Positions 30,801 to 54,146 of a stretch of 64,000 nucleotides of DNA are shown here, one piece after another; within the stretch, counting starts at the first letter, position 1, and every line of letters starts with the position of its first letter. Source of the stretch: a virus. Location of the stretch: the IMG/VR virus record IMGVR_UViG_3300023109_000007, positions 32,001-96,000 of that record, one strand, 5' to 3'. The notes under the pieces were generated by a model. It did not search any database, was not told the DNA's origin, and saw only the letters and a list, made by a program, of their open reading frames with translations. Position numbers and translations under genes: made by a program.

Positions 30801-33800
30801 TAGGTTTATTTAGAACTAATCCAGATATAATAGCAAACGGATATTCACTACTACGTCTCCAAGCATTTTCAACAGGCGATACATCACCAAATTTAAACTT
30901 GTTTCTTGTATTTCTTGAAACATAATTTTTTGCAAAGTTTGCTTTCAAGGGTGAAACTATTTTACCATCAGAACCAACTGGGATATGCTTTAATAAATTA
31001 GGACGAGCATATCTTACATCGCGCCTAGTATTAGCAGGGTCTTTAATTAGTCCTTCTGAAATGTCTTCCCAAAGAATTAAGTTATCTCCTGTATACGGAG
31101 CCTTGCCATATGTATCTTCCCACCAAGTAGGTTTCACTGTAATACCAAGCATTTCCCAAGGATGTGTATGCGGACGATCAGTGTCGTATGCTTTTCTATA
31201 TACGCCGCGCCAAAAACCTGGAAGTTCTTCACCATTAGGAGCATTCATATAAGAGTAATTAAACGTTAATTGATTACCTCTATCGTAGAAAGAGTTATCT
31301 GTATAATCTGCATCGACTAACTGTTGCCATTCAACAAAACTGCTTAGTAATGAACCATTAAAGTCATCATACTTAATACCAGTGCTTCTATAATATCCAG
31401 GAATATAGTCGTGTATATTAAATATTTCTTGATTGTACTCAAACTTAATATTATTAAAGATTCTTTTTTCAAGTTCTAATAACAAGTTATCTCTATAATC
31501 ATCAAATGCAATAACTATAGATCCGTCATGTCCTTGTATAACTTTAGTTTCTTCTTGATAAGTGTCGTCTACAAAAATAGCTGGTTCATATTTTGGATAT
31601 AATCCTAACTTAGTAGGTGTTGCTGGAATAAAGGATCCGTCAGTTGATTCCCATTCAACTATTTCAATCTCATCGCCAACATTTTGTTCTGCTATGATTA
31701 GTACAAACCCTTCAGTACTAAAGCTATAGTCAATGCCATTAGTTAGTAATGAACCATTTAAGTATACTTGTACAGATTTACTAGACAAAGCTGAAGCATC
31801 AAATGCTGATGTTAATTGATAAAAAGGATTTCTTGAATCAAGTACAGAGTTTCTAATAACATTGTTTGCTCCAGTAGGAACCATATCACTAAAGTAATAC
31901 GGCATATTAGGAGTTTTATCTTTGTTTAATTCTTTTAATATTAAGTCAACATGTGTCCTTATTGGACCATCGTAACCTAATGTTTCTGCTGTTTGTAGAA
32001 ATACTCTTTTGAATTTTGCATAATCATTTTTTGATTGCTTTAAAGATTTTACAATGTTAAAGTTTTTATTAGTTATATGATATCCTGCTAGATTCATAGG
32101 AGCAGTATGCTTTACAAATCTTTTACCGTATCTATTAACATTTTTTATATCACGTAAATTGCTCGGACCTGGATATATGCCTGAAAACGCATTTATATCT
32201 TCTACCATAGAATCTACATGATCAATAACTTCGCCTAATGTAAACTGAGTTATATCATCGTTGCTTGGGTTTCTTTCTAAATTAATCGGAAAATCGTAAT
32301 GTCCGTTTTCATTTTTATCAGCTGTTGTTTTTACCCTTAATTCTAACACATCGTTTTCTAGTAAGTCTGTTAGAAAACGTACAAATACTCGGCCATTAAT
32401 TCTGTCTAATTCATAATCTAAAAAATTACTCTTTAATTGTTTGTTAACATAAACTGCAACACGCAAGTCAGTAACATTTACTGCATTATCTACAACGTCT
32501 ACTTCAAAGTTATTCTGTTGATCTATTGTAGATACATATTGTCTAATAATTTTCTGTACCATTTTAGTAGGAGTTGATTCCCAACTATTTTGGTAACTAT
32601 ATTCTTTATTATTATTATATTTTTTGAGGAATGCTGTATCAGTCTTTACAGTATAAAAGCCAGCAGCATCTTGATAAACAAATGTATCAGTAAGAAGATT
32701 AAAGTTAAATAATATATCTCCTGAATTTTCAATTGATTGATATTCTAATGGAAATCCTAGCTCACTATCTGCTGTTCCTTCACCTTGTGCATAACTGAAT
32801 AATTTAGTACCTGCAAAATTACTTGCTTCATATGTTGTAGTATCTGAATAACTTACTTCGTTTGCATCAAACAAATCAAACGTTGGATTTATGTTTACTC
32901 CGGCTTTTGCTTGTGATGCTTTCCATTGCAAATTGTCATAGTAAAATAAACTACCTGCAAATTCAACACCTTGTGTAATAAGCACTGTCTGTAAATCTTG
33001 AGGTATAGCGTCAGCTGTTTCGATTAAAGTTATTTGGCGTCTATTATTAGTTGTTATAAACTTTACTTCATAAATTTTTCCGTTAACAAGTATATCAGTA
33101 TCGGCTGCAAATAGTACACGCATGCCTTCTGCTAATGCAACACCATCAACACTATAACCTAATGATCCTTCAATTATTGAAAATACATCTGTTGTATAGT
33201 TGTCAATTAAGTCAATATCTTTTTTAGCAAATACTCCGCTATTGTGTAACTTTAATCCTGGTTCAAATTCAATAATAGGTCTTTTTGCTCTAGCACTTTG
33301 ATCTATATTACTTGGTTGATTATTTCTTAATGCTGCATAATCAATAACATCTTTGTGGAACCATCTATTGTATCTTGCCCAAGGATTTTTATCAGGAGCA
33401 GCTCTGTTTATAATAATGTAATCTTTAGTACCTGCATAACTGCTTTGGTTTGCAAAAGGTAATCTATCAAATCCTTCGCTATCAAACAAGACAGCTTTTT
33501 CGGAAGCATAAGCAGCAGGAATAATTAAGTCTTTATCTCTAACTAATGTTATTTGGCTTCCGACTCCTTCAACATAATATGTTCCTTCACTATATGTATT
33601 TGGAGTAACTTTTCCTAAGAATTCAACTTTAAGACCATTTGTAAATTTAACACCATTAGAACTTGTGTATTCTTTTTTGCCAATAATTTCTGCATCTATA
33701 TTAATTGCTGTATTTTCTTCAATATCAAAAATTCTTACTTGGCCGCTAGTATTCAAATCATTCTTACTAATATAGAATAAGAAGTCAGGAGCATTTAACG

Positions 33801-34719
33801 GAATAGTAAATTCTATTACTCCGCTTTCAATATATACATTTGCAATTTCTGTACCTTCTTCATCAAATCTAGATATTCCATTAGGATATAATTCACTAAT
33901 GTTTTCGTCATCTCCGATTTCAATACCGCCTTCACGTGGCTGTACAATAAATTCTCCAAGATCATATGACTCGCCAAATAATGTAGCATCAAATAATCCT
34001 TCTCCTCTAACACCTTCTCTTGTTGCTGTTATTACAGAATTGCCAGGTGTAAATGATCTTGATACTGCAAATGCCATTGGGTGGCCTGGTGTATCAATTT
34101 CAAACCTATATGTTTGACCTCTATATAATACAAGATTTGGGTTAGCAGTTAGTCCGTCTGGAGTAAACAAAAATGCAGTATCTTCTCCGGCAGTAGTTAA
34201 GCCTACTGAGTATGTACTTGTGACTGATTGAGATTGTCCTAACACTTCAACTGTTTGTGGACCAGTTGGTAACCAATAGTATTCTCTAAAGTTTACAAAT
34301 TTATCCCAATCAATATGTGGGTTCCACGGATGATAATCTTGGGCATAAGTTTCTGAATGATTAGTAGTGTTGCCGCCAAATACACCTATTTGGTTTGTAA
34401 TATCATTATAATCTTTGTAAAAATTAACAGTACCTAATTCGTCCTTTTGAACTATAGCTGGTTCAAATTGATAGTCTGTTCTTTGCTTAGATACGTCAGG
34501 AACATAATTATCTCCCGGTACAAATGCTTTTGCTGTTGTTCTTCCATAATAAGATGTAAGTTTTTCAGCTACGCCAGGTTGTATTAACTGATCTAAAGTT
34601 GCTTGTAAAAAGTTTACGTTTGCTGTTGTTCTAAAGTAACGAGGTAATAAATCTGAGCTACGTCTTTTTTCACCGCCTTCGCCCGGTAGTGGTTTATCGT
34701 TTTGATTATCTATAGCCAT
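18835..34719 (-). CDS. Giant (5294 aa) baseplate wedge / adhesin-like structural protein
   Basis: Single 15.9 kb ORF directly after gp6. N-terminus LLPRYFRT..FL is baseplate-wedge-like; carries FG-GAP-like propeller repeats, CBM5/12-like repeats and 'ITSIEIANPGSxY' repeats. Confidence 0.75.
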   Translation of the reverse strand: MAIDNQNDKPLPGEGGEKRRSSDLLPRYFRTTANVNFLQATLDQLIQPGVAEKLTSYYGRTTAKAFVPGDNYVPDVSKQRTDYQFEPAIVQKDELGTVNFYKDYNDITNQIGVFGGNTTNHSETYAQDYHPWNPHIDWDKFVNFREYYWLPTGPQTVEVLGQSQSVTSTYSVGLTTAGEDTAFLFTPDGLTANPNLVLYRGQTYRFEIDTPGHPMAFAVSRSFTPGNSVITATREGVRGEGLFDATLFGESYDLGEFIVQPREGGIEIGDDENISELYPNGISRFDEEGTEIANVYIESGVIEFTIPLNAPDFLFYISKNDLNTSGQVRIFDIEENTAINIDAEIIGKKEYTSSNGVKFTNGLKVEFLGKVTPNTYSEGTYYVEGVGSQITLVRDKDLIIPAAYASEKAVLFDSEGFDRLPFANQSSYAGTKDYIIINRAAPDKNPWARYNRWFHKDVIDYAALRNNQPSNIDQSARAKRPIIEFEPGLKLHNSGVFAKKDIDLIDNYTTDVFSIIEGSLGYSVDGVALAEGMRVLFAADTDILVNGKIYEVKFITTNNRRQITLIETADAIPQDLQTVLITQGVEFAGSLFYYDNLQWKASQAKAGVNINPTFDLFDANEVSYSDTTTYEASNFAGTKLFSYAQGEGTADSELGFPLEYQSIENSGDILFNFNLLTDTFVYQDAAGFYTVKTDTAFLKKYNNNKEYSYQNSWESTPTKMVQKIIRQYVSTIDQQNNFEVDVVDNAVNVTDLRVAVYVNKQLKSNFLDYELDRINGRVFVRFLTDLLENDVLELRVKTTADKNENGHYDFPINLERNPSNDDITQFTLGEVIDHVDSMVEDINAFSGIYPGPSNLRDIKNVNRYGKRFVKHTAPMNLAGYHITNKNFNIVKSLKQSKNDYAKFKRVFLQTAETLGYDGPIRTHVDLILKELNKDKTPNMPYYFSDMVPTGANNVIRNSVLDSRNPFYQLTSAFDASALSSKSVQVYLNGSLLTNGIDYSFSTEGFVLIIAEQNVGDEIEIVEWESTDGSFIPATPTKLGLYPKYEPAIFVDDTYQEETKVIQGHDGSIVIAFDDYRDNLLLELEKRIFNNIKFEYNQEIFNIHDYIPGYYRSTGIKYDDFNGSLLSSFVEWQQLVDADYTDNSFYDRGNQLTFNYSYMNAPNGEELPGFWRGVYRKAYDTDRPHTHPWEMLGITVKPTWWEDTYGKAPYTGDNLILWEDISEGLIKDPANTRRDVRYARPNLLKHIPVGSDGKIVSPLKANFAKNYVSRNTRNKFKFGDVSPVENAWRRSSEYPFAIISGLVLNKPNELFGRCFDLSRITPNLAGQHVYSTTGKFITLADIQFPNSYNGTERVITSGLINYLYSYISANVSSIYQEYKDELTTLTNQLGFKIGGFTDKSKFKLILDSRTPYNQGNVFVPEENYQIIFNTSSPLENQIYSGVTIEKQSGGFIVRGYAFDTPYFSYYPYIESTVDRTIIIGGISETFESWTPNRRFTEGAVIENAGRYYRVTTGFESTTVFTTDNLVSIPEVPVEGGKRAIIRKTFSKKIKKLNYGTQLRTSQDVVDFLLGYGKYLQDQGFVFDTFNANTDDVDDWTYSCKEFLFWTTQNWAAGTAISLSPAANVLQFKKDYAVVDNIFDNFYPYSILDADARQINKDFDHTIRQQNSFGMVLKNTEQGIYQAQLPLVQKEHVCLLDNTTQFGDTIFHPATGYRQERIKVIGYRSDEWAGGMDVPGFIYDDTNITVWDSYKDYVIGDVVKYKEFYYVALVNIPGSELFQTSSWQKLAEKPESQLMVNFDYKINQFADFYDLDSDNFDIEQQKLAQHLIGYQPRNYLANIINDDVSQYKFYQGMIQDKGTVNALSKLFDALNYAEKDSLEFFEEWAVQLGQYGATSKYKDVDFILDESKFRITPQPIELVDIKNPTRSDTAIEIQPYEVYSRDSEYQSKVFPKIDDVKEYIQSAGYVRTEDIKFRVRIKDDLLKIQTPQITVGDYVWVTDDNISFDYDWNVYQLVDTPYNITSITPEDEGADEITGSTTPFVRVNTTKFVGGDIKKGDVVGIYGAASSNLLNFLYVSEVSVDTMVLQLPDGVVVSAIENVNYLVARFRSVRVKDINELNTLIESYKDENQKVWIDKLDKSWSVIQNTENYVEQQVIFNPATSTDNFQKYGVALSVSDDNRNLMVSASDDNDGKVHYYRRSVETNNLVLTQTILPPDNIRVNDAVLTLSQSVNVVAGHKFKQGNCTATISQTTSGNTVYLENVRGQLNVEGANLISVNGTIETSLGNNGIFDSFVITQRDINFGSDIAISPDGNFLAVGTPDAAEIRTRFQGDFVPTQEYNKNDVISFREGLYKANRTIIPQQPSVEFNTFNSYTDIASQDDADSSLISLLLTGNPGLIDKPTDHFLIRAPKTAYLATEPGDSVSLTWNRFSRSNPTLDLTLPWDGDSGTLTYEDISDTHTIVQKVDLVIYVDTFTILPQIGNSVTTPTGSGEVYYIETQDDSVVMYLTNVNGVFDAFGDLYVNDADIMGTYNILADNVIDGLSGFWLVNVYSDAEKTVSKVYENGSTWIEIGTGLIYNDVKRQSDNRNIFEYFNLQNLISSIGSYTGQQQQAGQIINLTYLGDNGNLATPTTFATDKFVVRMSSEYQNKITDINGNILIDPDTGNNVKVRLQLYDLDNYVIDVASAGFTFEQLNKKHTITDIWDGFIDFEFTEFQNDLPYEPLVGSIVTDVQTPFDGFGGLSLSTRTTSRAEVVFYQRDFNKVRVYLKNISGDWSQLNNIGRYEIRREPDATLFPGQPGRVMGKIDSVLQDVAMGGNEIGGLMVFENTDGNLPLVSLPPVAEDPSWQYSKIVDEEYWFYDAVAQQGAQVPANYPDAFNRDYTQVYSIPVDEFGQVQNVNEGTISIFKFNGTSGFRYVDSFVSERASDNRGYGTKLKLVQSGLDYTLLVSSTSGTGQLEIIKHGVPVDKADNYFGEWGPLNTFEQGVIVEYQGEFYEAKRDVPQLEPVIDIGNTTYWNRISWRYGKDDDYRGLFQNDPVLDYAPGELVKYADPDDDSTLKLYKAKTKVDGTQPFSTNDWEIVTGGEDYLGYLPTETNNTLYESQMLFESKWPLTQFAKSFDLSKDGKLLVVLNEHSVEAKVESIDTDADTITIDSTAWLYIGMPVRVRIPNELDSSNAAAQSPLAENQTYYVHSILSDTTFRISSTLFDDETVRDATLAADTADSTWEYLALDEYAEGIYITNFTVDDTIATIGIYKLDGTKYMFKQMLEDTLTKDGIYHDIAVSDDGKFFAVSEPYNDSINIDQGRVLVYKENAAGVFELSQTLISPNNEQSELFGFNIDFSKNEIVITSKNGDITSPTTFDGTIVGNTEPTTTYDSGFTTFNNVLVNSGVVYVFENLNDSFVFAERFNYTGETQTFGEVLVINDNHTYVGMPRIEKDTYQGEIIDYRKPFNKSAWNIIRSPVDTVDIKLIEGMFLYNKRTNQKVLDLDYVDIIQGKLPGPAEQEIDYKVPYDPARYNVTPLEGMFDEGDPWGANYVGSVWYDISLSKFINAYQGDITFQKNNFNKLMPDYVVSVHEWVESDYSPAKWDELSETEIGYQAGITGQTVYSDAQYTQVVNYDSATQTFGSKFYFWVTRKTDVPKNSTNRKLSVLDIGNLIQNPAGNGYKHVALLAQDRFIVHNCDSLLNDKDIVLNVRWLANNDREQNVHTQYQIMSDGLETSKLNPEIEQKWFDSLVGYDAQMRQVPDPNLPVKLKYGNRFSPRQGMFVNKTEALKQVIERVNLVLAEKLIVDDFDLSPLTSSQSIPSKFTNLYDFEIDTVEELRFIGTSKIVQAQLTPVISNGAIRSVEITEPGRGYKDINFNPETDTIRKGPTVEIVGQGTGAEIQTFINNLGQVTSVEVINQGENYTNATRLLVRKLSVLVITDSTVYGKWSIYDWDNSSKEWFRKRVQEFDTSLFWSYADWYANGYNEFTDIDYSLQGTYELYGLENKIGDIVKISSVGTGGWLLLRKVANEDTEDFTINYETIGRQSGTIIFDNSLYDLLNNSLGYDVRSFDSYFYDNQPVQELRIILNTIRDNIFVDELEIEYNNLWFASLRYVFSEQLYVDWAFKTSFVKAKHNLGVLQQDITFNNDTLPSYEAYIKEAKPFKTSIREFVSNYEAIDESNSKISDFDVPAYYDTVSKKITVPIIKVVDDVVVSNNTKLNEFPRKDFTDNVGYEITSIEIANPGSKYTFTPKIIIEGGGGSGATAQAYLGRGAITKIEVTNPGSGYISAPTITIQGSQASGGIEASASVIIGNSLIRTALMKVKFDRTSGSMYIMDLDTAETFAGTGFKTSYNLEWPIANNSTKVKISVDGEEALRSEYTYYNKENNDKSYTRLQGVIDFTTPPSNLAVITVEYEKSVDMLHAQDRVNFFYNPTSGMLGKELNQLMDGIDYGGVQVRSFEFTGPSGWDSDSWYSTTWDSYINTFEDEVFIFDGSTISIKLGQPLEAATNYNVYVRLLGETEYTRIDGASPDSSDTTYDGPWIETLIGDGTTDIIELDELGITVKDGDSIIIRKETSDGSFEPDDLSFDTALSGGDLAYSTAKGIAAEEIIIDGDGFVTPTTSKGTEELVPGQLIDSLDIQVYERETGGQGMIYAQTFVLGANDTEFDLKIIPASVDSILVKLDNTLLSPSEYTIDWTNNKLVLDSANLAVNQVLSVVAVGTGQQNVLDTGRFVATGDTADYLTAVKHQESMSAYVTINGIKQDIILIEADDSFPNFGGNTVIRFESEPSTGALIDYVIFADDTIINVSQMARSSLIGDGSTVSFTLPSTPLYQTPLEYKMLVKVGNKVLNPGYNAEFTIPQDRQRQYQLELFQKPGGSISNVENNVKPFINGKAITFPNQWVFDSSNSIIELQPGVGKPGDILEVYIVGDGEYTITNNVITFVDTPGYDVSIELITFTNHDILNSERINYEVAARSLLTAGSKEYSTYHRLTTGEILLRKPVIDAQYVWISVNGELLIPSLDYHVTDDRTKVRIEQKLNPDDVIDVLSFSAPIATERFAYRQFKDMLNRTHFKRIDQATTTLTQNLNYYDLRIEVADGSTLPEPNKGKNIPGIIWINKERIEYLVKEDNTLRQLRRGTLGTSVNESITSGTSVYDQGPNKSIPYKDETITRIHTTDGSTKVIDLDFDPDNNAQVYNAAHDLEVSAVEFFEVFYQGRRLRKTSQLSFNPATALDSNEGDIILPPEFSVVGNILTLNIADPDTGIYGNYIPPANVQVHIIRKQGKVWNDPDTSLANSDNNIANFLRSGSINFIE

Positions 34720-37700
34720 TAGTAACTATAACCTCCGCTTGAAGAACTTCCCGAAGAACTACTAGAGCTACTTGAAGAAGAACTTGAACTGCTAACATTT
34801 GCTACATTACTACTACTTCTTGTGCTTAATACAGGAGCACTTTGTACCCCTACTACTTCTGCTGGTGTAGACGTAACAATTTTTCCAGACGACTGTAATT
34901 TAGAAGAAGTAATTTCGTCAATTACATCAATATCTTTTACTGTTGCGCCATTTATAAATATTTCATCGTTTTCTGAATTAATTTGGAATAGGCTTCCAAA
35001 TGATTGATCTGCTTGTTCTGGAACAATAAGAAAACTTACTAAATCAGGACTCATAAAATTCATTACATAAGAACTAAGTTCTTGAAAATAAAATGTGTCT
35101 CCAAAGTCCCAATTTTCTGTGCTAAAGAATCTATTAATTAAAGCAACTATACGTGATTTAATATCATTGTCATTTAGTACAAGATCAGGATTCTTTACAA
35201 CTTTAAATTTAACTTGCAAGTCAGGCATTGCTTTTGATCCAAATAATACTTTGTACTTAACAGGGTGATATATTATTTCATCACTTATTGATTTAATTGC
35301 ATTTAACTCTTTTCCATAAAGTCTAAATAATTCATCACTGCTAGGTGGCTTTGGTTTCATTGGCATTTCGCCTGAAAGATAAAGTCTAAACTGTGTATCA
35401 TAATTTCTACTTAATACATGAGTATCAATAATATTACTTAAACTTGGATCTATTCTATTTTCAGAATCAGCTACATGTAGGTAGTTAAACTTCAACGAGT
35501 TTCTACCAATATATGCTCTATAATTTGAAATTGTAGTTAAACTATTTGCAGTTGAATTATACTGTTTAAATACAGCTTCTTCAACTAGATAAAATATCTT
35601 TCCGTTGTTATTACTAATACGCTCTACTGCTGCTTCGTTTGTTACTTGTATAATATCTGCATTAGTATTATCAAAATATTTAAAGTCTTCAACACCATCA
35701 GACGTAGTATATAATTTTTGGTATATGTACTCATTAGCATTAACTATTTCTTCAAATATTTCAGGGTCATCAAATATGCCATCATTGTTTGAATCATAAA
35801 ATGTTACTTCTAATTTTCTAGTATCTCTGTATCCTGCTGGATCTCTAAATTCTTTAGCTGCACTCCATGTATAATCTTTATTAAACGGAACTCCAGAACC
35901 ATCAGGTTTTGAATTAATAGACAAAACATCTATTTTGTCTTTAAGAACTTTACCTGTCCTCGGATTAAAGACTTTATTTGCTTGATCAAAATAAAACTTT
36001 AGTTCGTCAGCACTTTCAAAAACATATCTTAAATTTCTGTAAGTTATTGTATATGTTTCACCATTTGTTTTGAAGTAAAGCAACCAACTAGAATCTAGTT
36101 GCTGTCCACTAACATCGCCTGTTTTACCTGTACTAAAGTCAGCTGTTGTATTAATGTTATCAGCTGTAATTAATTTCCAACGTCTTGCAATATCGTCATA
36201 TCTAATAGCATAATCGTTGTAAGCAAATGTTTGGTCAATAATCTGTGTCTTAAGGTCATCTAATAATACCGAAGACAATTTAGGTTTAATTTGTGTCAAT
36301 ATTGGTTTGATATTTGCATCGCCGTTTGAAACAGGTAATATTTCATTTAGAATAATATTTCCTATGTTGTTTGTTGTACCAGTACCGTCACCTGTAACAC
36401 TTACAACCTTTACCCATCTATATAAAGATGCGTTTGGATGATCAGCTGGTCCAGGCATTATAATATTTTCTGCATCGTCCATAAAGTGATAACCTTCTGG
36501 TGCAGCAAATCTTAACATCGATCCTGCTTCAATTAATCTTAAACTATTACTTGTAAATGCTCCAACTTTATATGATACTGCATCTTGGTCAATAAAGTTA
36601 CCTGTGTCAGCATTAGTTGACGTAGATGTTGACGACCATCGTGCATTTAAATCAGTAACAATAATTTTTGGATATTTTGCCCAATAAAAGTTTTTCATAT
36701 TAGTGCTAGTTAACAATCCTTGTATAGTATTATAAATTACACCTTCAACATCACTTTGTGTTACAAAACTAAAGTTATTCTTTTCGTCAAATTTTTGCTG
36801 GTACAAAATACCATCTGTTCCAAATAAATTTGTATTACTGTATTTTCCTGTAGTATCCTTTAAATCTAAATATCTGCTTATTCCGCTGCTAACTCTATTA
36901 ACTGATCTTGTCTTAATAATATCTTGGCTTACACCCAATGGTGCAACATTATAGTCTTCGCCTGTAATCATTCGATTTTGAGTATAATACGTTGCAGGAG
37001 CATTTGATTTTATGCTTTCATTTGACTCACTTTGTGTAGCATTATTAACAGCATACTTAAGACTCATTGTTATAGTAAGTTTTTCGTTAGTATTTTTTCT
37101 ACTAATGTAAGGTATAGAAATAGTAATATTTGACATACCTGCAGGATTAACAGAAAGATTTCTGTTAGCACTTGTTCTATAATATGTTCTAAAGTTGCCA
37201 GCTGGAAGATTGCCAAATACACCGTCACTAAACACTAGATTAATTCTATCACTAACTCTTGTAGCAACTGTAAATACGTTTCTAATATTTTTAGACAAAC
37301 TATTATAGATAATATTGTTACCTTCAACAGCAGCTAGTTTTGACCAAAGTTCGTTTTCAAATCCATTTGAATCAATGCTGTATAACCAGACATCACTGTT
37401 GTTTATGTTTGTTACATCAATAGCAATATTTTGATTAGGCGTTGGATTTTCAACAAAAAATTCTCCAGACTTTAGTGTTCCTTGTCTAAAGTGCATAAAG
37501 AAACCTGTATTAGAACTGCCAGCGCCTCTGCCGTCATCTCTAAATAGAAACGCAGGATTATTTCCTGGTAACGGTGGTTCTTCTAATATTTCTCCGTCTT
37601 GAATATCTGTACTTACTGCTTCAAATGCTACAGTAGTTCCTTCAACAGTTTTTGTAAACTTAAATCTTGGAATATCTGTGTTTAAAGAATTTAATCTGTA

Positions 37701-38258
37701 CTGCTCTGTAGATATGCCTGATACTTGTTCATTCTTTAGAGGTGTACCTACGCCGTTATTTGCAGGCAATGCTGCATTAAGTATTTTTGTAAATTGCTCA
37801 AACCAAGAGCTGCTACTAGCATCGTTCCAATTGACTGTAATACCAGCTAAATTTGTTCCTGAACTATCAATAAGTGTTTCAGTAGTTTTTATGCTATCAA
37901 ACTTTAATAGCCCTGATGCTGCTTGATTTCTTTTAGGATTATAAGAAATTAGTCTTGCTAAACGTAATATGCTTTCTCTACGTTCTGCTGTTTCAAGAAA
38001 GTTTTCTCTAGCATTTAAATCTGTTCTAAATGACAGATTTTGGCCGAGGAAAGCTATCATGTCAATTAGTGCTAAGAATTCACTAGATTCAATATAATCG
38101 TTAAAGTCTTCTGGATAATTTTGGCGCAGATAATTAATTAAAGTTCTGCGTAGGCTATCAAAATCATAACTTTGAAAATCAGCATTCCTGTATGATTGGT
38201 ATATGCGTTTCCAGTCTTCTGTTACTAACAGTCGATTTTGTCTATCTGTTGATGACAT
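34719..38258 (-). CDS. gp6: Baseplate wedge subunit, T4 gp6-like
   Basis: DFDSLR..LINYL..DFNDYIESS..LIDMIAF..ENFLETAERRESILRLA..YNPKR and APATYYTQNRMITGEDY motifs. Confidence 0.85.
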   Translation of the reverse strand: MSSTDRQNRLLVTEDWKRIYQSYRNADFQSYDFDSLRRTLINYLRQNYPEDFNDYIESSEFLALIDMIAFLGQNLSFRTDLNARENFLETAERRESILRLARLISYNPKRNQAASGLLKFDSIKTTETLIDSSGTNLAGITVNWNDASSSSWFEQFTKILNAALPANNGVGTPLKNEQVSGISTEQYRLNSLNTDIPRFKFTKTVEGTTVAFEAVSTDIQDGEILEEPPLPGNNPAFLFRDDGRGAGSSNTGFFMHFRQGTLKSGEFFVENPTPNQNIAIDVTNINNSDVWLYSIDSNGFENELWSKLAAVEGNNIIYNSLSKNIRNVFTVATRVSDRINLVFSDGVFGNLPAGNFRTYYRTSANRNLSVNPAGMSNITISIPYISRKNTNEKLTITMSLKYAVNNATQSESNESIKSNAPATYYTQNRMITGEDYNVAPLGVSQDIIKTRSVNRVSSGISRYLDLKDTTGKYSNTNLFGTDGILYQQKFDEKNNFSFVTQSDVEGVIYNTIQGLLTSTNMKNFYWAKYPKIIVTDLNARWSSTSTSTNADTGNFIDQDAVSYKVGAFTSNSLRLIEAGSMLRFAAPEGYHFMDDAENIIMPGPADHPNASLYRWVKVVSVTGDGTGTTNNIGNIILNEILPVSNGDANIKPILTQIKPKLSSVLLDDLKTQIIDQTFAYNDYAIRYDDIARRWKLITADNINTTADFSTGKTGDVSGQQLDSSWLLYFKTNGETYTITYRNLRYVFESADELKFYFDQANKVFNPRTGKVLKDKIDVLSINSKPDGSGVPFNKDYTWSAAKEFRDPAGYRDTRKLEVTFYDSNNDGIFDDPEIFEEIVNANEYIYQKLYTTSDGVEDFKYFDNTNADIIQVTNEAAVERISNNNGKIFYLVEEAVFKQYNSTANSLTTISNYRAYIGRNSLKFNYLHVADSENRIDPSLSNIIDTHVLSRNYDTQFRLYLSGEMPMKPKPPSSDELFRLYGKELNAIKSISDEIIYHPVKYKVLFGSKAMPDLQVKFKVVKNPDLVLNDNDIKSRIVALINRFFSTENWDFGDTFYFQELSSYVMNFMSPDLVSFLIVPEQADQSFGSLFQINSENDEIFINGATVKDIDVIDEITSSKLQSSGKIVTSTPAEVVGVQSAPVLSTRSSSNVANVSSSSSSSSSSSSSSGSSSSGGYSY

Positions 38259-38310
38259 TGGCAATTCCTCATTTGTTGTAGTATTTAGCGTTAGAGATTA
38301 ACTACTACTA

Positions 38311-47343: not shown

Positions 47344-48351
47344 TTGTTTAAGAAAGCAGCAGTTTTTACTGACATACACTTTGGCCTTAAAAGTAATAGC
47401 CGAACGCATAACTCAGACTGTGAAGAATTCATTGATTGGTTTATTGTTAATGCAAAAGAAAAAGGTTGCGAAACCTGCATTTTTTGCGGCGATTGGCATC
47501 ACAACAGAAATTCACTTAATCTTACTACTATGGATGCAACAATTCGTAGTATGGAAAAGTTAGGCAAAGCATTTGATAAAGTTTTGATGTTTGTAGGAAA
47601 TCATGATTTATATTACAAAGACAAACGTGATGTAAGTTCTACTGAGTTTGCTAGGCATATACCTGGTATTACAGTAGTTGACAAGATACTAGTCGAAGAT
47701 GACGTTGCTCTTGTTCCATGGTTAGTTGGTGATGAATGGAAAAAAGTAGGAAAAATTAAAGCCAAGTATTTGTTTGGTCATTTTGAACTACCTAGCTTCT
47801 ATATGAATGCCATGGTGCAGATGCCTGATCACGGAGACTTAAAGGCTGAACATTTTGTTAATCAAGAATATGTGTTTTCAGGACACTTTCACAAACGTCA
47901 AAAGCAGGGTAAAGTACATTACTTAGGTAATGCATTTCCGCACAACTATGCAGATGCATGGGACGATGATCGCGGAATGATGGTACTAGAACACGGGGGC
48001 GAACCCGAGTACATTAACTGGGAAGCCTGTCCAAAATACAGAACAATAAAACTTTCTAAACTAATTGATGACACTGACAAACTTATTAAAGATAAGATGT
48101 ATTTGCGTGTTACACTAGACTTACCAATTAGTTATGAAGAAGCTAACTTTATTAAAGAAACTTATATTAGCAATTACGGTGTTCGTGAACTAACACTTAT
48201 ACCGCAAAAGCAGATGGAAGAAATTAGTACAGATTTAGATATTGCACAATTTGAAAGTGTTGATCAAATTGTAGCAAGTGAAATAGCAGAACTAGATACT
48301 GCCAACTACAATAAGAACACTCTCTTACAAATATATAATGGTTTAGAATGA
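47344..48351 (+). CDS. gp47: Recombination endonuclease subunit (Mre11/SbcD-like)
   Basis: DIHFG, GDWHH, GNHD and GHFH metallophosphoesterase motifs; TTG start with GGAG RBS. Confidence 0.92.
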   Translation: MFKKAAVFTDIHFGLKSNSRTHNSDCEEFIDWFIVNAKEKGCETCIFCGDWHHNRNSLNLTTMDATIRSMEKLGKAFDKVLMFVGNHDLYYKDKRDVSSTEFARHIPGITVVDKILVEDDVALVPWLVGDEWKKVGKIKAKYLFGHFELPSFYMNAMVQMPDHGDLKAEHFVNQEYVFSGHFHKRQKQGKVHYLGNAFPHNYADAWDDDRGMMVLEHGGEPEYINWEACPKYRTIKLSKLIDDTDKLIKDKMYLRVTLDLPISYEEANFIKETYISNYGVRELTLIPQKQMEEISTDLDIAQFESVDQIVASEIAELDTANYNKNTLLQIYNGLE

Positions 48352-50120
48352 TACGAATTAAAGATTTAACAGTTAAAAACTTCATGAGTGTGGGCAATCA
48401 AACCCAGGCTGTAGATTTTAATCGAGAACAATTAACACTAGTACTTGGTGAAAATTTAGACCAAGGTGGTGATGATACTGGATCAAGAAACGGTACAGGC
48501 AAAACTACAATAATTAATGCACTAAGTTATGCATTATATGGTACTGCCTTAACTAATATTAAACGAAATAATCTTATAAACAAGACTAATTCTAAAGGTA
48601 TGTTAGTTACACTTCATTTTGAAAAGAATGGTGTTGATTATAGAATTGAACGAGGTAGATCACCTAACATTCTAAAGTTCTACATTAACGAACAAGAACA
48701 AGAAATGATTGACGAGTCGCAAGGTGATAGCCGAAAAACACAAGAGTCAATCCACGAATTGCTAGGTATGAGTCATGATATGTTTAAGCACATTGTTGCA
48801 CTAAACACATACTCTGAGCCGTTCTTATCTATGAGAGCTAATGACCAACGTGCAATCATCGAACAGTTACTTGGTATTACTATACTAACTGAAAAAGCAG
48901 ATAGACTTAAAGAAAGTGTTAAACAAACTAAAGATAGTATTACAACTGAAACTTTAAAGATAGAAGCTATACAAACAGCTAACAGTAAGATTGAAGGGAC
49001 AATTTCTAGTTTACAAAGAACACAGCGGGCGTGGCTTTCTAAGAAATCACAAGACGTTGAAAAACTAACCTTAGGAATTGACGAATTAGAACATGTAAAC
49101 ATTGACATTGAACTAGAATCGCATGAAAAACTATCAAATTGGACTGATCATAACAATGCTATTTTGGCTCTTAAAAAAGAACTTAGTACTTTGGAACCGG
49201 CACTACAACGTGCTGATAAGAGTGTAACAAAACTTGTTAAAGATGTCGCAGATTTAGAAGATGCTACGTGTTATACATGTGGACAAGAGCTACATGCAGA
49301 CAAAAAAGCAGAAATTGCAGAACGTAAAGAAAAAGAATTAGATGATGCAAAAGCATATGCACTAGAAATTACTACTAAAGTAAAAGACGTTATGCTTGCT
49401 TTGGATAAAATAGGTGACATTAATGGTAAGCCTACTACATTCTATGAAACTGCTAAAGAAGCATATGAGCATAGACAAAATGTTGATAGTTTAAGGACTG
49501 CACTTGTTTCAAAACAAAATGAAACTGATCCTTATCAAACGCAGATTGACGAATTAAACAACAGTGCTATACAAGAAATCAATTGGGACGAAATTAACGT
49601 ATTAACAGATTATAAAGAACATCAAGAATTTTTGTTAAAGTTACTAACAAACAAAGATAGCTTTATTCGTAAGAAAATTATTGATCAAAATTTAGCATAC
49701 TTAAATAATCGGTTGTCTTATTATTTAGACAAACTAGGATTGCCTCATCAGGTTGTGTTTTTAAATGATTTAAATGTTGAAATTACACAATTAGGACAAG
49801 ATTTAGACTTTGATAATTTATCAAGAGGAGAGCGTAATAGACTTATACTCGGCTTGTCGTTTGCATTTAGAGATGTTTGGGAGAGTTTATATCAAGGCGT
49901 AAACTTGTTGTTTATTGACGAACTTATTGACAGTGGTATGGATGCTGCCGGTGTTGAAAATTCATTAAGCATCTTAAAGAAAATGGGTAGAGAACGTGAA
50001 AAGAACATTTATCTTATTTCGCACAAAGACGAACTAATTGGTCGTGTTAATCATGTTCTAAAAGTTATCAAAGAAAATGGATTTACAAATTATGAAAATG
50101 ATATTGAAGTTGTAGAATAA
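48348..50120 (+). CDS. gp46: Recombination ATPase subunit (Rad50/SbcC-like)
   Basis: KNFMSVGN, Walker A NGTGKTT, Zn hook CYTC, signature LSRGE, Walker B FIDE and ISH. Confidence 0.93.
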   Translation: MIRIKDLTVKNFMSVGNQTQAVDFNREQLTLVLGENLDQGGDDTGSRNGTGKTTIINALSYALYGTALTNIKRNNLINKTNSKGMLVTLHFEKNGVDYRIERGRSPNILKFYINEQEQEMIDESQGDSRKTQESIHELLGMSHDMFKHIVALNTYSEPFLSMRANDQRAIIEQLLGITILTEKADRLKESVKQTKDSITTETLKIEAIQTANSKIEGTISSLQRTQRAWLSKKSQDVEKLTLGIDELEHVNIDIELESHEKLSNWTDHNNAILALKKELSTLEPALQRADKSVTKLVKDVADLEDATCYTCGQELHADKKAEIAERKEKELDDAKAYALEITTKVKDVMLALDKIGDINGKPTTFYETAKEAYEHRQNVDSLRTALVSKQNETDPYQTQIDELNNSAIQEINWDEINVLTDYKEHQEFLLKLLTNKDSFIRKKIIDQNLAYLNNRLSYYLDKLGLPHQVVFLNDLNVEITQLGQDLDFDNLSRGERNRLILGLSFAFRDVWESLYQGVNLLFIDELIDSGMDAAGVENSLSILKKMGREREKNIYLISHKDELIGRVNHVLKVIKENGFTNYENDIEVVE

Positions 50121-50311: not shown

Positions 50312-51023
50312 TATTTGGAAAAAGAAAGAAAAATTACACATAGATTGCTTTACTAATTTTGGTGGTATTACTAAACTTTTTCCAATAGAATCTAGTTCTG
50401 CTTTCATGCCTGAATGGTTTAAAAAGTTGCCTACAACAGCACAAACTGATACTGGCGGTAATGTAGGAACTGTAAAATTATGTCCTGGAATAACTGATAC
50501 ATTAAAGGCCGGTATTGTTATTCCTGTTTGGTGTGATATGTTTGTAGATCATGCAAACGGAGTTGTTAAAACTGAGCCAGAAGAAATGGCAGACGGACAT
50601 CCAAGTTGGCAATGGGGGAATCATTCATTGTTTAAAGGTTATCATCATTTAAAGATTTCATCACCTTGGCGATTTAGAGAAAAAACAGGTGCAAAATTTA
50701 TGATGACTAATTCTTTTTGGAATGATCCTCAAACTAATTATTTTGTTCCAAATGGTATTTTAGATTTCAAATATCAAACTACAACTAATATTAATATTTG
50801 GATACCGAAAAATAAATTTGGAGGTAGCGGAAAATTTTTACTCGAAGCAGGAAATCCGCTAGTACAAATAATTCCATTAGAGGATAAAGAAATTGTAATT
50901 CATATGCAAGAAGTTGGTGATGATGTATTTTACGGAGACGAATTAGATTATATCTTTACACAAAAAGGCATGTATTATAAGAGAAAAAACATTTTGTCCA
51001 AACGAGAAGGCAAAAAGACTTAG
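50304..51023 (+). CDS. Conserved phage hypothetical protein (possible dUTPase-like beta fold)
   Basis: PEWFKKL..T.K.CPGI.D..G...P.W.D, KI.SPW, G.LD and AG.PL.QIIP pattern, common in aquatic phages. Confidence 0.55.
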   Translation: MFNIWKKKEKLHIDCFTNFGGITKLFPIESSSAFMPEWFKKLPTTAQTDTGGNVGTVKLCPGITDTLKAGIVIPVWCDMFVDHANGVVKTEPEEMADGHPSWQWGNHSLFKGYHHLKISSPWRFREKTGAKFMMTNSFWNDPQTNYFVPNGILDFKYQTTTNINIWIPKNKFGGSGKFLLEAGNPLVQIIPLEDKEIVIHMQEVGDDVFYGDELDYIFTQKGMYYKRKNILSKREGKKT

Positions 51024-51040
51024 GCACACATATATACTGG

Positions 51041-51490
51041 ATGCAGTGGACATTTGAAGGTAAAATAATAGACGAAATACCAGAAGAGTACGAAGGCTTT
51101 GTTTATCTTATTACAAATATCACTACAGGACAAAAATACATAGGCAAGAAACTAGCAAAATTTAAAACTACTAAGCCACCGCTTAAAGGCAGAAAAAATA
51201 AACGACGAGGCTATAAAGAAAGCGACTGGAGAACATACTACGGTAGTTCAGACAGACTAAACGCAGACGTAGCATCAATAGGCTCAGATAAGTTTACAAG
51301 AGAAATATTATACCTATGTAAAGGTAGGGGCGAAATGTCCTACATAGAGGCAAGAGAACAGTTTGATAGGCGAGTACTTGAAACTGATGATTACTATAAC
51401 GGTATCATCAATGTTAGAGTAGGCGGTTCAGACAAACTCAAACAGGCATTGCTAGAACAAAACATCAAGGCAAAACAATCTAACACATAA
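51041..51490 (+). CDS. Standalone GIY-YIG family nuclease
   Basis: GFVYLITN...KYIGKK (GIY-YIG), YYGSS, conserved E (YIEAREQ) and YYN. Only 149 aa, with no extra DNA-binding tail. Confidence 0.85.
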   Translation: MQWTFEGKIIDEIPEEYEGFVYLITNITTGQKYIGKKLAKFKTTKPPLKGRKNKRRGYKESDWRTYYGSSDRLNADVASIGSDKFTREILYLCKGRGEMSYIEAREQFDRRVLETDDYYNGIINVRVGGSDKLKQALLEQNIKAKQSNT

Positions 51491-51870
51491 GGTTGGCGGG
51501 CCAGATTAATTTACCGCTGTGGAAAAAGCTCTCGTATAGAAGCACACGTAACACGTTGAGTCGCGTCTGGTAATAAGGCGTTGGATTGACGTAGATTGAA
51601 TGTTAGCAATTGAAAAACACAACACAGTACATAAAAACCCTTTAGCACTAGGAACGAAGCGAGGGAATAGTGTTACATATAATGTACATTGTATATTATA
51701 AGCAACATAATGTCGACGTAGGTTGGGAAAGGTCAGAGCCCATTGTACTTTGTGTATAAACAATTACCTACTTCCAATGTCTTGGCTGGTGCAGACTCAC
51801 ATGAAGCGCATTTTGAGATTAGATGGGACCGTAACAGGTTCCGTCTGACTGAAACAATCTACATGAAACT
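51491..51870 (+). ncRNA. Candidate large structured non-coding RNA (unassigned family)
   Basis: The longest non-coding gap in a tightly packed genome. It has many stems needing G-U pairs on the + strand, an 8-bp long-range helix (51591-51598/51855-51862) and a loop-distal pairing (51731-51737/51844-51850). Confidence 0.65.
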
Positions 51871-51874
51871 TAAA

Positions 51875-51984
51875 CATTATTACATTCGTAATAATGCATT
51901 TGTATCATATTCATTACTTCTATCAACAAACGAAGTATGTAGTTTGAGCGTTAAGCGAAAACAAATATCTACGAAGTAGATATT
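51875..51984. repeat. Cluster of short inverted repeats / hairpins
   Basis: CATTATTAC-ATTC-GTAATAATG (51875-51896); TACTTC..GAAGTA (51915-51937); GTTT-GA-GC-GTTAA-GC-GA-AAAC (51942-51962); AATATCTAC-GAA-GTAGATATT (51964-51984). Confidence 0.8.
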
Positions 51985-51996
51985 GAAACTATATAA

Positions 51997-52004
51997 TATA
52001 AATA
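51997..52004 (+). promoter_or_regulatory. T4-type late promoter
   Basis: Exact TATAAATA, 25 nt upstream of ATG 52030. Confidence 0.8.
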
Positions 52005-52029
52005 CATTAACTATTAAGGATTCTTCTAG

Positions 52030-52572
52030 ATGAAAATTGATGAAATTGAAAAACTTGATGAAGTGCCTGCAGGTATGCTAGGACAAGCTGGTAAAAAGCT
52101 TGGAGCAAAAGTATTAAACAAAATACCAGGTGGTGCTGCTAAATCAAAAGCTGCTAATATGGCTGCACAAGCTGACTTGGGAGATACTGCAAATAATTTA
52201 CATAAAGAATTTAATGCTCACCTTGGGTCTAAACAACTAACAATGGCACAAGCAACTGGAGAAGAATTAGTTGCTTTTCTAAAAACAAAGAATCACAAGA
52301 CTGCTGCTAGAATACCTTCTGGTGTATTACAAAAACAGCAACTTGATGCAGTACTAATGGCAGTTGCAAAAGAAGCAACGGCAGCACAAGCTGCTGCTCC
52401 GGCTGCAAATGCACCAGTAGATGCTAACAAAGATGGTATAGATGACAATACAGGAAAGCCAATCAAAGCTGCTCCTGCGGCTGGTGCAAAACCTAAAATA
52501 CCAGCAGACATTATGGCACAACTACAAAAACTTAGTCTTGAGCAAAAACAACAGTTGGCAGAGCTACTATGA
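52030..52572 (+). CDS. Putative head-internal virion protein
   Basis: Late promoter; N-terminal MKIDEIEKLDE, like a capsid-targeting/gp21-cleaved leader; Ala/Lys-rich. Confidence 0.5.
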   Translation: MKIDEIEKLDEVPAGMLGQAGKKLGAKVLNKIPGGAAKSKAANMAAQADLGDTANNLHKEFNAHLGSKQLTMAQATGEELVAFLKTKNHKTAARIPSGVLQKQQLDAVLMAVAKEATAAQAAAPAANAPVDANKDGIDDNTGKPIKAAPAAGAKPKIPADIMAQLQKLSLEQKQQLAELL

Positions 52573-54146
52573 AACTAAATGAAGTAACATTATTTGAAAA
52601 CAAATCACATCGTATACTGCAAGAAGGTTGGCAAGATCTAACTGAAGCACAAAAGTTGTATCAGTCTAGATGGGAAAGAGAACTTTGGCCATTATTAGAA
52701 CAGTATGTACAATTATGTGAAAATAAGTTAACTCCAGACGAAATACAAAAAGTATTTACAAGTGCAGAACAAGTGCAAAATGCACTAGGAAAAAATACTA
52801 ACGCTTTAGGCAAAGCAGGTAACGCAGCAAAAGCTGCTGCAAAACTACCAATTGATTTAGCTAAAAAAATTGATGCTAAAATTACCGAATTAGGCAGAGC
52901 TGCTCAAAATGCTGAAGCAGTAGTAAATGCAGATGCAAAATTTGAAAAACTAAAAGCTGATATTATGAAATCTAAGCCTGACAACAAAGTTGTTAAAGGC
53001 ATAACGGCTGTAAGCGATTGGGCAAAAGAGAATCCTGGTAAAGCAAGTATTGCTGTAGGTATCTTAACAACCATTGCTGCATTTGCAGGCGGTCCTGCAG
53101 GCGGTTTAGCAGCAGGTATGATATTAAGATCAACAAAAGAGCTATTGCAAGGTGAAAAACTTTCAACAGCAATTGGCAAATCAGTTAAAACAGCAGCCTA
53201 TGGTGCTATTGCTGGCTGGGCGTTGCAAGGAATTGGTGAATGGTTTGAAGGTTTACGTTATGATGCTGTACCTTTTGAACAATCAGAAGGGCTTGTAACA
53301 CTAGAAATTGGATTTAAAGACAATATTAGTTGGCCTGGATTTGAATCTACTCGAGAAATAGGTAGTATGGTGCTTCCAGAAAGTCAATTATCTGAATTTA
53401 CACAACTACTTGATCAAATGAAAGCAGCAACAGCAGTTGTTAATCCAACAACTGATCCTGGAGCATTAAATGCCTTTGATGAACTTTGGAAATTTACAAA
53501 AGAATTTGATACACAAGAATTTATTGCCAATATGAATCTAAATAACGAAATTGCTCAAATGGTTGCTGCTGAAAACGATGCATTCCTACAAAGCATGAAA
53601 GTTATTAATGACGGATTAGCATCAATTGCACAAGGTAGTATTACTGCAAAAGGCGAAAACACTCCAGTTAAAGTAGGTAGTGAAGAATATACTGCAAAAG
53701 ACACTGCAAAAGCTGAATCTTTAGATATGAACGACAGATTTGCTCAGTATTTGAAAGAAAGACAAGTAGACGAAGCACCATTTGGCGATATGATCAAAAA
53801 AGGTGCTAAAGCAGCCGGCGGAGCCATTGCAAAAGGTGCTAAAGCAGTAGGTGCTAAAGCAAAAGAAGTTGGAAAAGAGCTAGGAAGTATTGCTACAGCT
53901 AAAAAACTAAATGCAATGTGGGTAAAGGCAGGAAAACCAATGGATGTAGGAAGTATTGTTAACATATTGCAGCAAGGCGGTGTGCAAGACAAAACTATTT
54001 CTACAATTGCTAAACAATCTAACGTTGCATTGCCAATACCTAAGGATGCTAATGCAGTTGATCCTAAGATGCAAGCATTAGCTGACCAAATTAAACAATT
54101 AGGTGTGGCTCAAACTGTTAAAGCAATGCTAACACAGCAAGTATAA
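52569..54146 (+). CDS. Putative head-internal/ejected virion protein with a hydrophobic segment
   Basis: MKLNEVTLFE leader, Gly/Ala hydrophobic stretch ASIAVGILTTIAAFAGGPAGGLAAGMIL; co-transcribed from the late promoter. Confidence 0.5.
   Translation: MKLNEVTLFENKSHRILQEGWQDLTEAQKLYQSRWERELWPLLEQYVQLCENKLTPDEIQKVFTSAEQVQNALGKNTNALGKAGNAAKAAAKLPIDLAKKIDAKITELGRAAQNAEAVVNADAKFEKLKADIMKSKPDNKVVKGITAVSDWAKENPGKASIAVGILTTIAAFAGGPAGGLAAGMILRSTKELLQGEKLSTAIGKSVKTAAYGAIAGWALQGIGEWFEGLRYDAVPFEQSEGLVTLEIGFKDNISWPGFESTREIGSMVLPESQLSEFTQLLDQMKAATAVVNPTTDPGALNAFDELWKFTKEFDTQEFIANMNLNNEIAQMVAAENDAFLQSMKVINDGLASIAQGSITAKGENTPVKVGSEEYTAKDTAKAESLDMNDRFAQYLKERQVDEAPFGDMIKKGAKAAGGAIAKGAKAVGAKAKEVGKELGSIATAKKLNAMWVKAGKPMDVGSIVNILQQGGVQDKTISTIAKQSNVALPIPKDANAVDPKMQALADQIKQLGVAQTVKAMLTQQV

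Follow-up and report, generated by a model that had tools for sequence, protein, structure and literature searches.

The 64,000-nucleotide (nt) stretch of DNA analysed here, called the window below, covers positions 32,001 to 96,000 of IMG/VR record IMGVR_UViG_3300023109_000007, the 137.7-kb record of an uncultured virus, which is about 36% complete and represents a marine T4-like phage. Positions 51491-51870 of the + strand of the window form a gene in its own right. Its product, a large structured RNA from an uncatalogued family, is called the twin-box RNA here after a short word that it carries twice. The gene begins at the stop codon of a GIY-YIG nuclease gene or up to a few bases upstream of it, and specifies a + strand transcript with at least 13 helices and two pseudoknots, the second of them plausible from the sequences. 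Unpaired junctions are conserved and peripheral hairpins vary or may be missing, a pattern typical of RNAs that adopt a defined three-dimensional fold. Large RNAs that fold in a complex manner are rare, and those solved to date are ribozymes, guide scaffolds or self-assembling cages. The new family is abundant in uncultured marine phages (core in at least 119 viral contigs) and absent from Rfam and from cultured phages. The locus holds the following features, numbered by window position.

47344-48351, + strand: gp47/SbcD-like gene (profile search)
48348-50120, + strand: gp46/SbcC-like gene (profile search), with two small genes between it and the GIY-YIG gene
51041-51490, + strand: GIY-YIG gene of SegE type, encoding 149 amino acids (aa), catalytic domain only (residues 3-123; Pfam PF19835, E 1e-35)
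51491-51870, + strand: conserved core of the twin-box RNA (68-86% nt identity in relatives; alignments A1 and A2; pair counts)
51799-51805, + strand: box 1, ACATGAA, in the 12-13-nt loop of hairpin H7
51861-51867, + strand: box 2, ACATGAA, in an unpaired tail at the 3' edge of the conserved core
51875-51883/51888-51896, + strand: 3' hairpin A, with many compensatory stem variants
51915-51920/51932-51937, + strand: 3' hairpin B
51942-51949/51955-51962, + strand: 3' hairpin C, with tandem G.A
51965-51972/51976-51983, + strand: 3' hairpin D, with many compensatory stem variants
51997-52004, + strand: TATAAATA, a T4-type late-promoter-like motif found by reading the sequence, 5' of the next gene (52030)

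The original prediction, made from the sequence and its open reading frames (ORFs), had pointed to about 540 bp without a credible ORF and had proposed a large structured phage non-coding RNA of no known family. It had suggested looking for conservation and covariation behind homologous GIY-YIG genes, for folding beyond shuffled controls, for matches to Rfam covariance models and for a transcript. The 539 bases at 51491-52029 hold only short ORFs, and no ORF is conserved among relatives across the stretch. Conservation, covariation, strand-specific G-U pairing and the lack of an Rfam match all agree with the proposed RNA. The + strand of 51491-51870 folds at -105.1 kcal/mol (z -2.70), as well as which only two of 100 shuffles folded, and the - strand reaches z -0.55, with 25 of 100 shuffles as good.

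Relatives were collected by searching viral contigs with the GIY-YIG protein, which matched at least 597 stretches, at least 595 of them encoding a relative; the best 80 loci were kept. Fifty-one of these 80 reach at least 480 nt past the nuclease stop codon, and all 51 carry the non-coding stretch at the nt identity given above. Alignment A2, preceded by the earlier alignment A1, comprises 47 distinct relatives, and both conservation and covariation are present in them. The 13-helix model, derived from RNAalifold on A2, a column-pair scan and inspection, accounts for the alignment well: 97.2% of 3162 cells are standard pairs, and sliding the partners by 1-3 columns leaves 33.5-39.8% of cells paired. 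Two-sided changes are found in 24 of 69 pairs (shuffled mean 14.8), a count reached by none of 500 shuffles; doubly changed cells number 171, compared with 48.5 for shuffles, and covariation scores 0.218, compared with 0.125. The model helices contain 385 G-U pairs and 32 A-C pairs, which identifies the RNA as the + strand, as had been argued earlier from the many G-U pairs. The helices and the variable hairpin between them are as follows.

51495-51499/51514-51518, + strand: H1, a hairpin; 100% of cells paired, four pairs invariant and one varying between G-U and A-U
51519-51521/51545-51547, + strand: H2, with an A-rich internal loop; two-sided changes in one of three pairs
51528-51533/51539-51543, + strand: H2a; two-sided changes in five of five pairs
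51553-51559/51586-51592, + strand: H3, closing a lineage-variable module; three of seven pairs change on both sides, in 12-14 sequences each
51594-51598/51607-51611, + strand: H4, a hairpin with loop NNTGTTRG; one pair changed on both sides (13 sequences), three on one side
51622-51631/51744-51755, + strand: H5, a long-range helix; two-sided changes in five of five pairs of the inner part (51627-51631/51744-51748)
51638-51642/51661-51665 (CCCTT/GAGGG), + strand: H6, a hairpin with the invariant loop AGGAACGAAGC; two-sided changes in three of seven pairs
51666-51708 (stem 51678-51700), + strand: variable peripheral hairpin, in relatives absent or swapped for short GNRA-capped stems
51718-51723/51766-51771 (GTAGGT/ACCTAC), + strand: He, enclosing Hh and the 3' strand of H5; two-sided changes in two of six pairs
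51724-51727/51739-51742 (TGGG/CCCA), + strand: Hh; invariant
51731-51735/51846-51850 (GGTCA/TGACT), + strand: H9; 99.6% of cells paired, with one-sided G-U/G-C changes only
51789-51792/51806-51809, + strand: H7, the hairpin displaying box 1; two-sided changes in three of four pairs, 83.7% of cells paired, many gaps
51822-51830/51837-51845, + strand: H8, a hairpin; 99.8% of cells paired, one pair changed on both sides and four on one side

The inner half of H5 is the best-supported helix, and the outer half is poorly aligned, with 81% of cells paired. An alignment-free test of H5 on 94 distinct strand pairs gave -10.9 kcal/mol with a strand's own partner against -7.7 kcal/mol with a foreign one. 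H5 crosses He, and the RNA therefore contains a real pseudoknot (pseudoknot 1); H9 would plausibly form pseudoknot 2. About 10 unpaired nt (51756-51765) separate the 3' strand of H5 from the 3' strand of He in 47 of 47 sequences. At the other end, some 12 nt upstream of the core (..ACACATAAGG) are also conserved, both in the T4-like phages and in a second phage group described below.

Seven of the nine pairings of the original prediction hold. H1, shifted slightly in its limits, H6, He with the inner TGGG/CCCA, and H8 were all seen there, and the proposed match of GGAA with TTCC is invariant in relatives and hence without covariation signal. The predicted two-part hairpin at 51553-51592 retains its outer helix, H3, while its inner hairpin lies in the variable module; likewise, the 10-bp hairpin at 51678-51700 is present here but optional in the family. 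The proposed pseudoknot or switch between GGTCA and TGACT corresponds to H9, compatible in almost all cells yet plausible rather than firm, given its one-sided changes. A perfect match of GTAGATTG (51591-51598) with CAATCTAC (51855-51862) had been taken to close a domain of about 270 nt, and this helix is rejected: its 5' arm is taken by the covarying helices at 51586-51592 and 51594-51598/51607-51611, and changes in that arm go unanswered at 51855-51862. The prediction did not include the long-range helix 51627-51631/51744-51748, the helices at 51519-51547, 51594-51611 and 51789-51809, or the repeated word.

Hairpins A-D probably belong to the same transcript, which would then reach about 51984 and measure about 380-500 bases, because A and D show compensatory variants and motifs related to GAGCG..GCGAAA and ACGAAG also lie 3' of the RNA in the second phage group. 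TATAAATA, a putative late-promoter motif by its likeness to the T4 consensus, likely marks the end of the element. One short word, ACGAAG, is present in the invariant H6 loop (51650-51660) and again at or in the loops of B (51930-51936) and D (51971-51977), and it is found three to four times in L119, a contig of the second group; it may be a repeated protein-binding motif. The other 29 of the 80 contigs stop 21-339 nt after the nuclease stop codon, within the variable modules of the RNA (among loci L005-L078), a place at which assembly seems to fail because alternative modules coexist in the population.

Expression of the locus is touched by public sequencing runs, of which twenty hold part of the stretch and six are recorded as RNA. 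Contigs at least 85% alike from four RNA-library runs of four studies cover the GIY-YIG gene and the RNA, bridging the stop codon; being contigs, they give no transcript ends, strand or level, and DNA may occur in such libraries. Positions 50900-51025 and about 51992-52033 have no cover and are not counted as evidence. The transcript predicted originally is thus covered by RNA-library contigs, which are a weak hint of expression only. The joints seen in the four RNA runs are module replacements.

None of the 4227 models of Rfam 15 matched anywhere in the window at the gathering score. At E up to 10, there were only three junk matches (E 2.5-8) in 50900-52150 and none in 51470-51640, and at E up to 1 none in the relatives L119, L127, L090 and L104. 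The model of the Polynucleobacter-1 RNA motif (RF01718), which is given in a table of PMC2864571, had no match in 50900-52150, in 51470-51640 (E up to 10) or in the records of five divergent relatives. The RNA is found in 0 of 50,697 phage records; among 185,579 prokaryote genomes six pattern matches occur, none with any other core motif, and they are therefore put down to chance. We found no description of the RNA in the literature, the supplements of PMC10690425 and PMC2864571, which may list the motif, lying outside the search; PMC10690425 reports over ten thousand candidate structured RNAs in viruses.

The relation of the RNA to its neighbour is important for any functional reading. The 149-aa protein also matches phrog_447/7363 (PHROG), its gene is single-copy in the 137.7-kb record, and it can be inferred to be a Seg-type free-standing homing endonuclease gene. 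Its stop codon abuts or overlaps the 5' end of the structured RNA, where the ORF stops, and no frame continues after 51870. In three of 46 relatives (L022, L050 and L052; window 51488-51496) the stop codon TAA is AAA, and the frame closes two codons on, at a TAG created by a G-to-A variant within H1 (GGTTAG); the end of the GIY-YIG gene and the start of the RNA therefore overlap. The GIY-YIG gene sits 3' of the SbcC gene in all 80 best loci, a constancy to be read with the fact that the search was seeded with the GIY-YIG gene itself. Across these loci the GIY-YIG protein shares 86-94% aa identity with that of the window, SbcC 72-90%, and the 180-aa product of the downstream gene 30-47% in loci where it is detectable. 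The nuclease and the RNA thus form a conservation island, as expected after homing or strong selection.

A pattern scan for the invariant core matched at least 119 viral stretches. The 119 matches listed include 106 with a GIY-YIG gene upstream and 11 cut within 350 nt of a contig end. The second phage group holding the RNA consists of five contigs (L119, L127 and L203-L205). More than 6 kb upstream of the RNA in L119 and L127 hold neither a GIY-YIG nor an SbcC gene; both genes were searched in these two contigs, and L203-L205 are near-identical to L127 around the RNA. In L119 and L127 a small ORF is followed by the RNA and then by terminase genes, and L119 has an HNH gene 1.4 kb from the RNA. 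By eye, L127 also has a near-consensus TTGACA-N17-TATAAT promoter about 270 nt 5' of the RNA, before the small ORF, and this motif suggests early transcription by the host polymerase. Conversely, Melnitz phages and Synechococcus phage B3 encode GIY-YIG homologues (69% and 50% identity, respectively) that are not followed by such an RNA. The RNA without the nuclease and the nuclease homologues without the RNA indicate that the RNA is an independent module, and the link to GIY-YIG genes in general that was implied originally does not stand. The nuclease looks like a neighbour of the RNA rather than a proven or obligate partner. The constant association of the two in the T4-like group is what would be seen if a homing endonuclease gene had settled next to a conserved RNA gene, and the two may also cooperate.

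Homing genes in comparable places are familiar: SegB sits among the T4 tRNA genes, and MobA is associated with the gene 60 insert. As with Seg-type GIY-YIG genes of T4-like phages, a small GIY-YIG gene lies here beside a conserved RNA stretch, and the island is more conserved than its flanks; the differences are that the protein is a catalytic domain alone, that no empty site was found at the locus and that the RNA is not a tRNA.

The most unusual property of the RNA is its pair of boxes, which could be scored in 122 of 124 distinct sequences. Boxes 1 and 2 are identical at all seven positions in 119 of the 122, and the other three differ at position 7. There are 11 variants of the word, and the boxes lie 51-68 nt apart. 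Close relatives show parallel changes, namely A to G in both boxes of L080, G to A in both boxes of L056, and two changes in both boxes of the L044 clade; L119 has a wholly different 10-nt word, likewise present twice. Two identical words evolving in step are an unusual signature, which points to a pairing partner. The flanks of the boxes are fixed yet unlike each other (ACUC 5' of box 1, AUCU 5' of box 2), and G+C content in 117 sequences averages 24.8% over the 60 nt that follow box 2, compared with 42.8% for the core and 37.0% for the loci. Every box variant of the T4-like group has U-R-A (UGA or UAA) at positions 4-6, after ACA, ACG, GCA or GUA, a pattern that the second-group boxes (ACAGAAA, TCATCAA) do not share. 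Translational bypass or tagging, brought to mind by this stop-codon-like U-R-A, was dropped, as the boxes lie outside conserved ORFs and ARAGORN finds no transfer-messenger RNA (tmRNA).

The partner of the boxes was sought at several distances. No column co-varies with the boxes from -780 to +560 (1.3 kb aligned), and no segment complementary to them is present in cis within the RNA. The 129 loci (1.08 Mb) contain no recurrent third site; in them the reverse complement of the box is present 31 times, where about 66 copies per strand would be expected, and its occurrences do not cluster by position. The record of the window has seven TTCATGT sites, four of them followed by AG and one forming a 12-nt complement of box 2 and its flank; as all seven lie within or at the start of genes on the opposite strand, they were not counted as partners. 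The same 137.7-kb record, about 36% complete, holds no GGG-flanked complement of the box and no candidate partner. The box has no third copy at the left edge of the GIY-YIG gene. The window also contains AAACAATCTA twice, at 51473-51482 and at 51852-51861; we regard this direct repeat of 10 nt as coincidental, since only a minority of lineages share it with the window and it changes together with synonymous sites of the GIY-YIG gene.

We hypothesize that the two boxes are coupled directly through the template DNA. Since the boxes are identical rather than complementary and no third co-varying site was found, the simplest partner for box 1 of the RNA is the template DNA strand of box 2. Moreover, 11 variants among close relatives are easier to understand if only two sites must match. 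The loop with box 1 would pair with the template strand of box 2 as the polymerase enters the A+T-rich tract, and this pairing would act as a tether between the folded transcript and the DNA encoding it. The tether could then nucleate a persistent R-loop, serving either as a pre-primer for replication or to fix the 3' end of the RNA. The R-loop, a replication origin and a defined 3' end are candidate features, proposed from a sequence property of the boxes. To this coupling we give a chance of about one in three, and to the explanation as a whole, that is, an RNA gene with a Seg-type neighbour and directly coupled twin boxes, a probability of roughly 0.4. If true, the R-loop reading would make the locus a phage element of a new type, for replication or for anchoring the transcript.

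The closest precedent is RNA II of plasmid ColE1. An upstream loop of RNA II was reportedly found by Masukata and Tomizawa in 1990 to pair with the template DNA near the origin. This loop is G-rich and has the same sequence as the downstream stretch. RNA II is a folded transcript of about 550 nt, and formation of a persistent hybrid depends on its structure (PMC5043065). The twin-box RNA is likewise a long folded non-coding transcript, in which the identity of box 1 and box 2, as a property of the sequence, would permit pairing with the template. The two differ in that RNA II has an origin, a hybrid, processing by RNase H and an antisense regulator, and the twin-box RNA is known from its sequence. 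They also have no similarity in sequence or by Rfam, the boxes are 51-68 nt apart rather than hundreds, and the carriers are phages rather than plasmids.

Several observations weigh against this explanation or parts of it. One of the five covariation measures did not exceed chance, with 52 further pair types against 50.2 in shuffles and 125 of 500 shuffles as high. H9 and Hh show no two-sided changes. Constrained folds produce a stem enclosing box 1 in 90 of the 122 sequences and none around it in the other 32. The hairpins after box 2 keep compensatory changes of the RNA type, which suggests that the transcript extends past box 2 and folds there instead of remaining hybridised. A single G-rich strand from elsewhere could pair with both flanks, ACUC and AUCU, and a third-party partner would fit this equally well. 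Finally, no member of the T4-like group was seen to have the RNA but lack the nuclease gene, which is present in 106 of the 119 matches listed, 11 others being too short to judge.

Some of these points lead to a trans-acting reader or sponge RNA, in which two identical single-stranded seeds would pair with an RNA or DNA of the host or phage, binding either two copies of a target or one target in two alternative states. The exposure of box 1 in a 12-13-nt loop and of box 2 in an unpaired tail suits such seeds, as do the failure to find a partner in cis and the fixed flanks CUC and UCU, both of which could pair with a GGG of a common partner. With three parties, however, every event would require three matched changes, yet 11 variants exist among close relatives, and the incomplete record of the window offers no candidate partner. 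We consider a reader or sponge unlikely, if worth keeping in view.

The RNA could also be the guide or scaffold of the GIY-YIG nuclease, with the boxes specifying a DNA site in the manner of the omega-RNAs of IscB and TnpB. The RNA begins at the stop codon of the nuclease gene, it is present in all 51 GIY-YIG loci that extend at least 480 nt downstream, the gene lies upstream in 106 of the 119 matches listed, the protein is a catalytic domain without a DNA-binding domain, and it is more conserved than SbcC. Obligate co-occurrence of RNA and nuclease, which characterises omega-RNAs, is not seen here, as L119 and L127 have the RNA without a GIY-YIG gene and GIY-YIG homologues occur without the RNA. 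The boxes are moreover internal and not a variable terminal guide; they do vary (11 variants), and no DNA target was found in the own record or in the 129 loci. We know of no RNA-guided GIY-YIG enzyme. A guide of this kind, which would mean a new class of RNA-directed nuclease, therefore seems decidedly improbable to us.

Just as improbable is a self-processing ribozyme, degenerate group-I-like or lariat-capping-like, whose boxes would be two substrate sites recognised alike. The likeness to group I introns lies in the crossing long-range helices, H5 and He, with a hairpin domain (H6 and the variable hairpin) between them, which is a likeness of topology only, in GNRA-capped peripheral stems and A-rich junctions, and in the adjoining homing endonuclease gene. 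In contrast to such introns, no Rfam family matches even with the E limit raised to 10, only 10 unpaired nt stand where a group I intron has P8, no reading frame is interrupted, and no exons flank the RNA. G51865 is A in several lineages, and there is thus no fixed terminal G. No spliced form was met either: the joints in the four RNA runs are module swaps and not excisions, and a form with the stretch between the boxes excised has the RNA core upstream in 0 of the 116 junction-bearing metagenome matches listed.

Of very low probability is the related idea that the boxes are a programmable address, selecting a DNA or RNA site for catalysis by the RNA itself or by a recruited nuclease, in the T4-like group the GIY-YIG enzyme that lacks a further domain. 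If true, this would be the first RNA-guided GIY-YIG homing system.

We give slightly less credit still to a cis switch, in which both boxes would compete for one complementary segment after hairpin A and alternative folds would control read-through or processing. Several lineages have a segment resembling YTTCATA with which box 2 can pair (AUGAAG/CUUCAU in L030, AUAAAG/CUUUAU in L056). Nevertheless, across 10 box classes the 60 nt downstream are complemented no better by a sequence's own box than by foreign ones, and box positions 1-3 fall outside the proposed partner. A partner after hairpin A, promising by eye, accordingly failed the class-by-class test, and its positions in RNAduplex were inconsistent.

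A signal at the DNA level only, such as origin iterons, a packaging site or single-strand hairpins, agrees with the repeated short words (the boxes, ACGAAG) and with the position beside DNA-metabolism genes or, in the second group, just 5' of the terminase genes, but is scarcely credible given the excess of G-U over A-C pairs in covarying helices and the fact that only the + strand folds better than shuffles, where DNA hairpins would be strand-symmetric.

Among known large RNAs, GOLLD and ROOL are ornate non-coding RNAs, often phage-borne, whose function is unknown or structural. To our knowledge, no twin-box feature has been described for them. The twin-box RNA resembles GOLLD and ROOL (RF01998, RF03087) in its length of several hundred nt, its many helices, pseudoknots and conserved junctions and its occurrence in phages, and differs from them by the lack of a covariance-model match and of a tRNA neighbourhood, ARAGORN having found no tRNA or tmRNA gene in the 64-kb window.

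Two further observations concern the surroundings of the locus. The genes 3' of the element (52030-54146), which encode the 180-aa protein, rich in Ala and Lys, and one of 525 aa, have no Pfam or PHROG match. Further upstream in the window, one ORF of 5294 aa (18835-34719, - strand) is followed by an ORF of 1181 aa (34719-38264) in a block of structural genes, and the former is unusually large for a protein of a T4-like phage.

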